Shown: piece after piece, positions 3,157 to 3,749 of the stretch
Numbering within the stretch: position 1 is the stretch's first letter
Layout of the letters: each line of letters opens with the position of its first letter
DNA from: Naegleria gruberi
Taxonomy: Eukaryota
Assembly (NCBI GenBank): GCA_000004985.1
Contig: GG739209.1
DNA length: 3,749 bases
Reading direction: 5' to 3' (one strand)
Made by a program: the position numbers and the translations under genes
Notes under the pieces: model-generated
Seen by the model: the letters and a program-made list of their open reading frames with translations, nothing else
Told to the model about the DNA's origin: nothing
Databases searched by the model: none

Positions 3157-3463
3157 TTATTCGTTGAGATTTGTTGCTTTAAAAACTTCCTTGATATCTT
3201 CTTTAAAATCCAAAATTGAATAATAATCAAAAATATCATTGTGATCAGCTCCTGGTACTGTAATAAATTTAAATTTGTTTTTAGCATTTTCATAAATTTC
3301 CTTTCCATGTGAATAAGGTACAATACTATCTCTATCACCATGTATAATCAATGTTGGTGCTTTGATATTGGAAACTTTATGAATATTACAAAACATATCG
3401 TATGGTCTCATGAATGGTACAATAGGTGCAAGGAATGATCTTCCCAATCCAACATGTAAAATA
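3157..3463 (-). CDS. Terminal exon of an ABHD17/FAM108-like alpha/beta-hydrolase. It carries the catalytic Asp (…PTLIIHGDRDSIVPYSHGKEIYE…) and catalytic His (…ITVPGADHNDI…), with stop TAA at 3159..3157.
   Basis: The translation ILHVGLGRSFLAPIVPFMRPYDMFCNIHKVSNIKAPTLIIHGDRDSIVPYSHGKEIYENAKNKFKFITVPGADHNDIFDYYSILDFKEDIKEVFKATNLNE aligns well with the C-terminal half of the animal ABHD17 (FAM108) serine hydrolases, recalled from memory (…[33 protein letters not shown]…VEGAGHNDIE…). The exon begins straight after a CAG acceptor at 3466..3464. Confidence 0.85.
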
Positions 3464-3510
3464 CTGTTAATGTCAAAATTTTTGAGAATTTTCACAAATG
3501 TAAAACTTAC
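3464..3510 (-). other. Intron of 47 nt (GTAAGT…TTAACAG) in the hydrolase gene.
   Basis: The - strand reads gtaagttttacatttgtgaaaattctcaaaaattttgacattaacag. It has a canonical GTAAGT donor and a CAG acceptor. The region is open in frame, which is why the supplied ORF 3157..3537 carries the false N-terminal extension MLNHISIEIVSFTFVKILKNFDINS. Confidence 0.55.
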
Positions 3511-3520
3511 GATTTCAATG
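3511..3520 (-). CDS. Putative 10-nt microexon (cattgaaatc) of the same hydrolase gene. Together with its phase-1 and phase-2 junctions it encodes P-L-K-S.
   Basis: It is flanked by an upstream CAG acceptor (3523..3521) and a downstream GTAAGT donor (3510..3505). It restores the reading frame between the two large exons and gives LILQT-PLKS-ILHVGLG, which parallels ABHD17 VVLHS-PLTS-GMRVAF. No single-intron model keeps the frame. Confidence 0.5.
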
Positions 3521-3565
3521 CTGATATGATTCAGCAATCAAATTTCAATTACTACTACTACTTAC
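3521..3565 (-). other. Intron of 45 nt (GTAAGT…ATCAG) in the hydrolase gene. It contains a (TAG)3/(CTA)n trinucleotide repeat at 3551..3562.
   Basis: The - strand reads gtaagtagtagtagtaattgaaatttgattgctgaatcatatcag. It has a canonical GTAAGT donor and a CAG acceptor, and in-frame stop codons inside it. Confidence 0.55.
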
Positions 3566-3749
3566 GTGTTTGTAAAATCAATCCACCCACTGGATACTTT
3601 TCAGCCAAATAAGAGCTAGGTCCAGTTCCAATAGAAATACCAAATATTACAATATCAGCCGGATCAATCTTTTCGTTATTTACAAGATAATTATAGGCAG
3701 CTTCAGCACTTTCATAAACATCTAAATAATAATTCTTTTGATTAGTAAT
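3566..3749 (-). CDS. Internal exon, partial because it runs to the window edge, of the ABHD17-like hydrolase. It contains the nucleophile elbow G-I-S-I-G (GxSxG).
   Basis: Reading the - strand in frame from 3749 gives ITNQKNYYLDVYESAEAAYNYLVNNEKIDPADIVIFGISIGTGPSSYLAEKYPVGGLILQT. This resembles ABHD17 …LYLDVEAAW…ILYGQSIGTVPTVDLASRY…. The exon ends in phase 1 at 3566, immediately before a GTAAGT donor at 3565..3560. Confidence 0.85.

Follow-up and report, generated by a model that had tools for sequence, protein, structure and literature searches.

A predicted 10-nt coding microexon in an alpha/beta-hydrolase gene, with counterparts in Naegleria fowleri and Naegleria lovaniensis

The window, meaning the whole 3,749-nt stretch of DNA that was analyzed, contains on its minus strand a gene predicted to encode an alpha/beta-hydrolase, the N-terminus of which lies outside the window (Table 1). 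The sequence is that of a draft scaffolded assembly: a scaffold gap of 1369 N at 1178-2546 interrupts open reading frames on both strands, and there is a single ambiguous base at 1098. A long open reading frame on the plus strand (279..>1177) enters this gap and encodes an Asn-rich, apparently multi-pass membrane protein. No homolog of this protein was found at E ≤ 0.001 among 5.8 billion proteins, and Pfam gave only a sub-threshold match to DUF898. The neighbor downstream of the hydrolase gene is an unrelated 121-amino-acid open reading frame (2997-2632, minus strand, MATPTTPNVPP…) with no Pfam match, the TAA of which overlaps the ATG of a second open reading frame, MDQSPLEPSLEPDRIPNDS… (2632-2547, minus strand), that lies in another frame and also enters the gap. 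The two frames would be linked by a candidate 35-nt GTATAC…GCAG piece (about 2679-2645), which is unusually GC-rich for an intron here. In N. fowleri (locus L001, 4534-6453) and N. lovaniensis (locus L002, 4417-6200) the 3' neighbor of the hydrolase gene is a class II aminoacyl-tRNA synthetase gene (tRNA-synt_2), so the local gene order is not conserved with respect to these species. Rfam and tRNA scans over the window returned no matches.

Table 1. Features of the hydrolase gene in the window, and the corresponding 10-nt exons of two other species
Feature	Sequence	Coordinates	Strand	Remarks
Probable 3' end of upstream intron	attactaatcaaaagaattattatttag	3722..3749	-	Branch-like CTAAT, with AG 20 nt further on; predicted noncoding
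156-nt exon	(D)VYESAEAAYNYLV…GISIGTGPSSYLAEKYPVGGLILQT	3566..3721	-	Nucleophile Ser codon 3635-3633 in G-I-S-I-G
Intron 1, 45 nt	GTAAGT…TCAG	3521..3565	-	GTAAGT 3565-3560; CAG 3523-3521
10-nt microexon	CATTGAAATC	3511..3520	-	TCAG before, GTAAGT after
Intron 2, 47 nt	GTAAGTTTT…AACAG	3464..3510	-	GTAAGT 3510-3505; CAG 3466-3464
Last exon	ILHVGLGRSF…HGDRDSIVPYSHG…GADHND…NLNE	3157..3463	-	TAA stop 3159-3157; Asp codon 3330-3328; His codon 3243-3241
N. fowleri 10-nt exon	CACTGTTATC	L001 4033-4042		Encodes PLLS; introns of 88 nt before and 71 nt after
N. lovaniensis 10-nt exon	CGCTATTATC	L002 3916-3925		Encodes PLLS; introns of 75 nt before and 60 nt after

The 156-nt exon ended …TTA CAA ACA C, in phase 1, with C3566 as its last base. 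Joining C3566, the 10-nt exon and T3463 gave CCA TTG AAA TCT, which encodes Pro-Leu-Lys-Ser, and the junctions 3566|3520 and 3511|3463 together produced a stop-free frame, …VGGLILQT-PLKS-ILHVGLGRSF…NLNE*, up to the TAA. A first-pass annotation of this DNA had proposed such an exon, reading T-PLKS-ILHV and restoring the frame between the two large exons; the end and phase of the upstream exon, both donors (3565 and 3510), both acceptors (3521 and 3464), the 10-nt exon itself, the minus strand and the restored frame were all confirmed on the sequence. It had also remarked that a supplied open reading frame runs straight through intron 2, and the open reading frame in question, 3537..3157 in a mechanical list, does traverse intron 2, and passes through the microexon in another frame. 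Candidate branch points in the two introns were sought as YTNAY. In intron 1 the candidate was TTGAT, the A of which (3538) lies 17 nt from the 3' end. The best candidate in intron 2 was TTGAC, with its A at 3473, just 9 nt from the acceptor, and this short distance was counted against the microexon.

At the other end of the 156-nt exon, similarity to the Naegleria proteins stopped at the AG at 3723-3722, which in position and phase coincides exactly with the acceptor of intron 3 in N. fowleri and N. lovaniensis. In the 28 nt that precede the exon (3749-3722, the first of the gene in the window) there is a branch-like motif, tTACTAATc, located 20 nt 5' of the AG. The residues ITNQKNYYL that these 28 nt could encode are probably not coding.

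The spliced product scored above the cut-offs of Pfam Abhydrolase_1, Hydrolase_4 and Peptidase_S9. Its top match in a protein search, far ahead of the others, was N. fowleri FDP41_011129 (59% identity), and a profile search added N. lovaniensis C9374_007861. No near-identical protein was among the matches. The relationship to dictyostelids suggested in the first-pass annotation was not borne out: the best matches were these two Naegleria proteins, three intron positions were common to their genes and the window, and neither list contained a dictyostelid protein. The matches and intron positions together indicate a heterolobosean amoeba allied to Naegleria. The match lists of the protein and profile searches also contained no N. 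gruberi ortholog, despite the public availability of annotated N. gruberi proteins. The hydrolase gene may have been lost from, or mis-modelled in, the N. gruberi annotation, possibly owing to the microexon.

Several lines of comparison placed the protein in its family. The residues of the triad, S39 (GISIG), D110 (HGDRDS) and H139 (GADHND), were invariant in alignments of 26 and of 63 homologs, and the second Gly of GxSxG was invariant in the 26. Ser, acid and His occur in that order on an alpha/beta core, as they do in the serine hydrolases of the alpha/beta-hydrolase fold. From these features the gene is predicted to encode a Ser-Asp-His alpha/beta-hydrolase of the Hydrolase_4 / Peptidase_S9 / 'ABHD17-FrsA-like' group. 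With the ABHD17 and FrsA-like hydrolases (PF12146, PF00326) it shares GxSxG, HGxxD, GAxHN and an LILQSP-hydrophobic-x-S segment. Metazoan ABHD17 (FAM108) depalmitoylases carry an N-terminal cysteine-rich palmitoylation cluster. In contrast, the first 50 residues of the N. fowleri ortholog, on which this comparison was made, contained no Cys and were modelled as one long hydrophobic helix. The earlier description of the gene as ABHD17-like holds only as a family resemblance, which does not extend to the cysteine cluster; JGI annotation names several homologs 'abhydrolase domain-containing protein 17' or 'FrsA'. A search of NCBIfam gave sub-threshold matches only, to assorted esterases. When the model of the ortholog was used for a fold search of the PDB, only generic esterase and monoacylglycerol-lipase folds were recovered; the nearest solved structures were the MARTX toxin ABH domain, MHETase/PETase-like esterases and monoacylglycerol lipases.

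The four residues spanning the microexon fall in a well-conserved part of this protein. In the AlphaFold model of the N. fowleri ortholog (pLDDT 92), strand 171-175 (GLILQ) was followed by a loop, TPLLS, at 176-180 and a helix at 181-186. The four residues are thus modelled as a tight loop that leads from the core strand GLILQ to the first small-cap helix (ILQVGL), between the nucleophile Ser and the Asp. None of the 63 aligned homologs, most of which came from intron-less bacterial contigs, had a gap in the four columns. The first position was Pro in 30 of the 63, the second was hydrophobic in all of them, and the fourth was Ser in 56. This level of conservation indicates that the four residues are needed throughout the family. 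The segment lay within a continuous exon in the homologs from Triparma, Ectocarpus and one large ENA contig, none of which had intron positions in common with the window. Since the segment is unsplit in the stramenopile and bacterial-type homologs, the split is specific to the Naegleria-related lineage.

To compare possible gene structures, all one- and two-intron GT/GC-AG models between 3640 and 3400 were enumerated, and 111 of them were in frame and free of stops. The microexon model ranked first, with 162.9 bits against a profile without Naegleria sequences. The best of the single-intron models, at 154.9 bits, removes one 98-nt intron that begins at the GT at 3561 (GTAGTA) and ends at the acceptor at 3464, which would make the product two residues shorter (…LILQT-RN-ILHV…) and the internal CAG and GTAAGT fortuitous. 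This structure is very unlikely. It is in frame and without a stop, and intron 3 of the N. fowleri and N. lovaniensis orthologs has a donor of the GTAGT type. Being in frame, however, is automatic for this model, because 4 and 10 share a remainder on division by 3. It scored 8 bits below the microexon model, a gap that widened to 10 bits when N. fowleri was included in the profile. It also drops two columns that are present in every homolog and puts other residues in place of the conserved P and hydrophobic-x-S, and the GT at 3561 is merely positions 5-6 of the GTAAGT consensus. The first-pass claim that the frame is broken by a single intron consequently needs to be narrowed: it is correct for the GTAAGT donor at 3565, but not for the GT at 3561 or 3558, which with the acceptor at 3464 give T-RN-ILHV or T-RKY-ILHV in frame. 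The N. fowleri locus ranked in the same way as the window, with 118.9 bits for the microexon model versus 110.3.

To estimate how likely such an exon is to arise by chance, the 93 interior bases were dinucleotide-shuffled 20,000 times. Some stop-free, frame-restoring AG…GT internal exon with a length of 3n+1 was present in 77% of the shuffles, and one of exactly 10 nt in 16%, so restoration of the frame alone is not evidence. Shuffles in which a strong donor followed a 10-nt exon made up 0.33% of the total. P-[LFMIV]-x-S was encoded by a 10-nt exon in 7 of the 20,000 (0.035%), and P-L-x-S by a 10-nt AG…GT exon in none of the 20,000. The encoded P-L-x-S counts as evidence for the microexon. An HMM-score test over all permissive splice models, in which 29 of 400 shuffles reached the observed best score, was too permissive to discriminate.

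In order to examine the orthologous loci, the annotated Naegleria proteins were reconstructed from their own genomic sequence by an exhaustive search over GT/GC-AG introns. For N. fowleri FDP41_011129 (KAF0983151.1 / XP_044567864.1) there was a single possible reconstruction, with seven exons, the sixth of which was 10 nt long. N. lovaniensis C9374_007861 also had one solution only, which again included a 10-nt exon. In both species this exon occupies the codon position and phase that it has in the window. The exon 5' of the microexon ended …ACA C, in phase 1, in N. fowleri, N. lovaniensis and the window alike. An independent second annotation of N. fowleri (CAG4717283.1) had identical residues, and both N. 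fowleri annotations contained the inclusion form only. The exon proposed from the window was therefore found again in both species, with PLLS in the four columns. The gene models already public for N. fowleri and N. lovaniensis include the orthologous 10-nt exon.

Substitutions within the exon were informative as well. Between N. fowleri and N. lovaniensis, identity was 84-90% in the flanking exons and 57-60% in the flanking introns, which also differed in length. Of the 10 sites in the microexon, the two species differed at 2, in the codon pairs CCA/CCG and CTG/CTA, and each change was synonymous and at a third position. The microexon of the window was set apart from that of N. fowleri by a synonymous TTG/CTG difference and by a codon changed from Leu to Lys. 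The donor 3' of the microexon, GTAAGT(T/G)TT, was common to all three species. This combination of substitutions and donor conservation is what would be expected of a translated exon rather than of fortuitous intron sequence, and a single 98-nt intron leaves both the synonymous-only changes in the 10-nt piece and the conserved GTAAGT donor in three species unexplained.

The same comparison bears on whether the gene, with a single 102-nt intron (3565-3464), might instead carry a frameshift, because it is a pseudogene or because the draft scaffold contains an error. The window is of draft quality, as the 1369-N gap and the single N show, and the outer splice sites are both strong. However, if all 102 nt were excised together, the frame would change and a stop would be reached 18 codons on, leaving a product without the Asp and the His. 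Both exons are otherwise intact, and the catalytic triad is invariant. The same apparent frameshift, mended by the same 10-nt exon, would also have to be present in three independent assemblies of three species, which makes this explanation extremely improbable. The microexon is almost certainly real and conserved across the window, N. fowleri and N. lovaniensis.

Apart from the 10-nt exon, the window gene resembled its Naegleria orthologs in some respects and differed from them in others. Protein identity was 57-59%, and the codon position, phase and arrangement of introns, the GTAAGT donor and the P-L-(K/L)-S segment were shared. The flanking introns were shorter in the window (Table 1), the peptide had Lys where N. 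fowleri and N. lovaniensis have Leu, and the GC content was far lower in the window, at 26%. The 156-nt exon of the window corresponded to exons 4 and 5 of the two species (72 and 87 nt) fused, minus one codon. An 85-88-nt intron located in DPSDI|YVFGISIG in the two Naegleria genes (L001 3773-3857, L002 3666-3753) was missing from the window, where ADIVIFGISI was uninterrupted (3660-3630). This difference would represent one loss or gain of an intron between the lineages, in which both introns flanking the microexon appear to have been retained.

Two properties of the comparison were counted against the microexon. The Naegleria gene models are RNA-seq-guided predictions and not cloned cDNAs, and the window introns, at 45-47 nt, are shorter than the median of 80 bp reported for N. 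lovaniensis, the genome of which was annotated by BRAKER1 with RNA-seq (PMC6125883). N. fowleri genomes have been annotated by AUGUSTUS with transcript hints, and their introns average 126-144 bp (PMC8296547). For both species, the support for inclusion of the microexon in mature transcripts is therefore indirect. In metagenome contigs there was no match to a 28-mer across the spliced junction and none to a 35-mer from an exon, so the negative result is uninformative.

Taken together, the sequence comparisons indicate that the Ser-Asp-His alpha/beta-hydrolase gene very probably contains a constitutive coding microexon at positions 3520-3511 of the minus strand. At 10 nt it falls within the limit of 30 nt or less for coding microexons, and also within the class of 15 nt or less; its inclusion is both required by the reading frame and compatible with it, and its length, phase and residues are conserved in the orthologs. 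During splicing, the two GTAAGT…CAG introns of 45 and 47 nt would be excised and the 10 nt kept in the mRNA. Because these introns are so short, each is likely to be recognized individually, by intron definition. With just 10 nt separating the acceptor of intron 1 from the donor of intron 2, the introns are probably removed sequentially; the first splice would join the microexon to one of its neighbors, and the second would then encounter an exon of normal size. Constitutive inclusion would be expected, since a transcript that skipped the microexon would run out of frame into an early stop.

That same early stop could be regarded as a sign of regulation. The microexon may be real and alternatively spliced, with either its skipping, which leads to the premature stop, or use of the donor at +4, which gives the in-frame RN form, acting as a switch that regulates the output of hydrolase. 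Regulation is common among microexons elsewhere, and plant microexons tend towards detained flanking introns (PMC8831610). However, no isoform was found in support of such a switch, both of the N. fowleri annotations show inclusion, and with a length of 3n+1 skipping of the microexon destroys the enzyme. Alternative splicing of this kind is considered unlikely. A related and slightly more doubtful proposal concerns why the arrangement has persisted. The microexon and both of its introns may have been kept since the lineage split from N. fowleri and N. lovaniensis, while the neighboring intron was lost or gained, because they are functional: if the two minimal introns on either side of a 3n+1 microexon were taken out slowly or in a set order, this could serve as a splicing checkpoint, at which skipping yields a premature stop and hydrolase expression is thereby tuned. 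If this long shot were correct, microexon use would be regulated in Discoba too, a group far removed from animals and plants.

As a constitutive exon, the 10-nt segment has clear parallels among known microexons, which are well established in animals, plants and fungi. The conserved plant microexons described by Yu et al. 2022 (PMC8831610), coding exons no longer than 15 nt, are likewise tiny, constitutive, located within conserved domains and easily missed or misannotated. Omission of plant microexons from gene models leads to frameshifts or small deletions (PMC8831610). Unlike the plant examples, the microexon in the window belongs to another supergroup (Discoba) and has extremely short flanking introns. 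The animal neuronal microexons (3-27 nt, dependent on SRRM4/nSR100 and PRP-40) are also very short and make splice-site pairing difficult. They are mostly multiples of 3 nt, alternatively spliced and regulated by tissue, and their long flanking introns are recognized by exon definition. In contrast, the microexon in the window is 3n+1 in length, obligatory for the frame and flanked by introns of 45-47 nt. A literature search found no paper on microexons in Naegleria. The microexon in the window is an unremarkable instance of something already known and opens no new question.

For annotation, the consequence is that ORF-based or naive gene callers would truncate or frameshift the hydrolase, the correct model of which requires the 10-nt exon. 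For the biology of the lineage, the gene structure predicted here suggests that the heterolobosean spliceosome copes with a 10-nt exon placed between introns of 45 and 47 nt. The arrangement appears to be stable between the window, N. fowleri and N. lovaniensis, which provides a small datum on the conservation of introns and microexons in Discoba.
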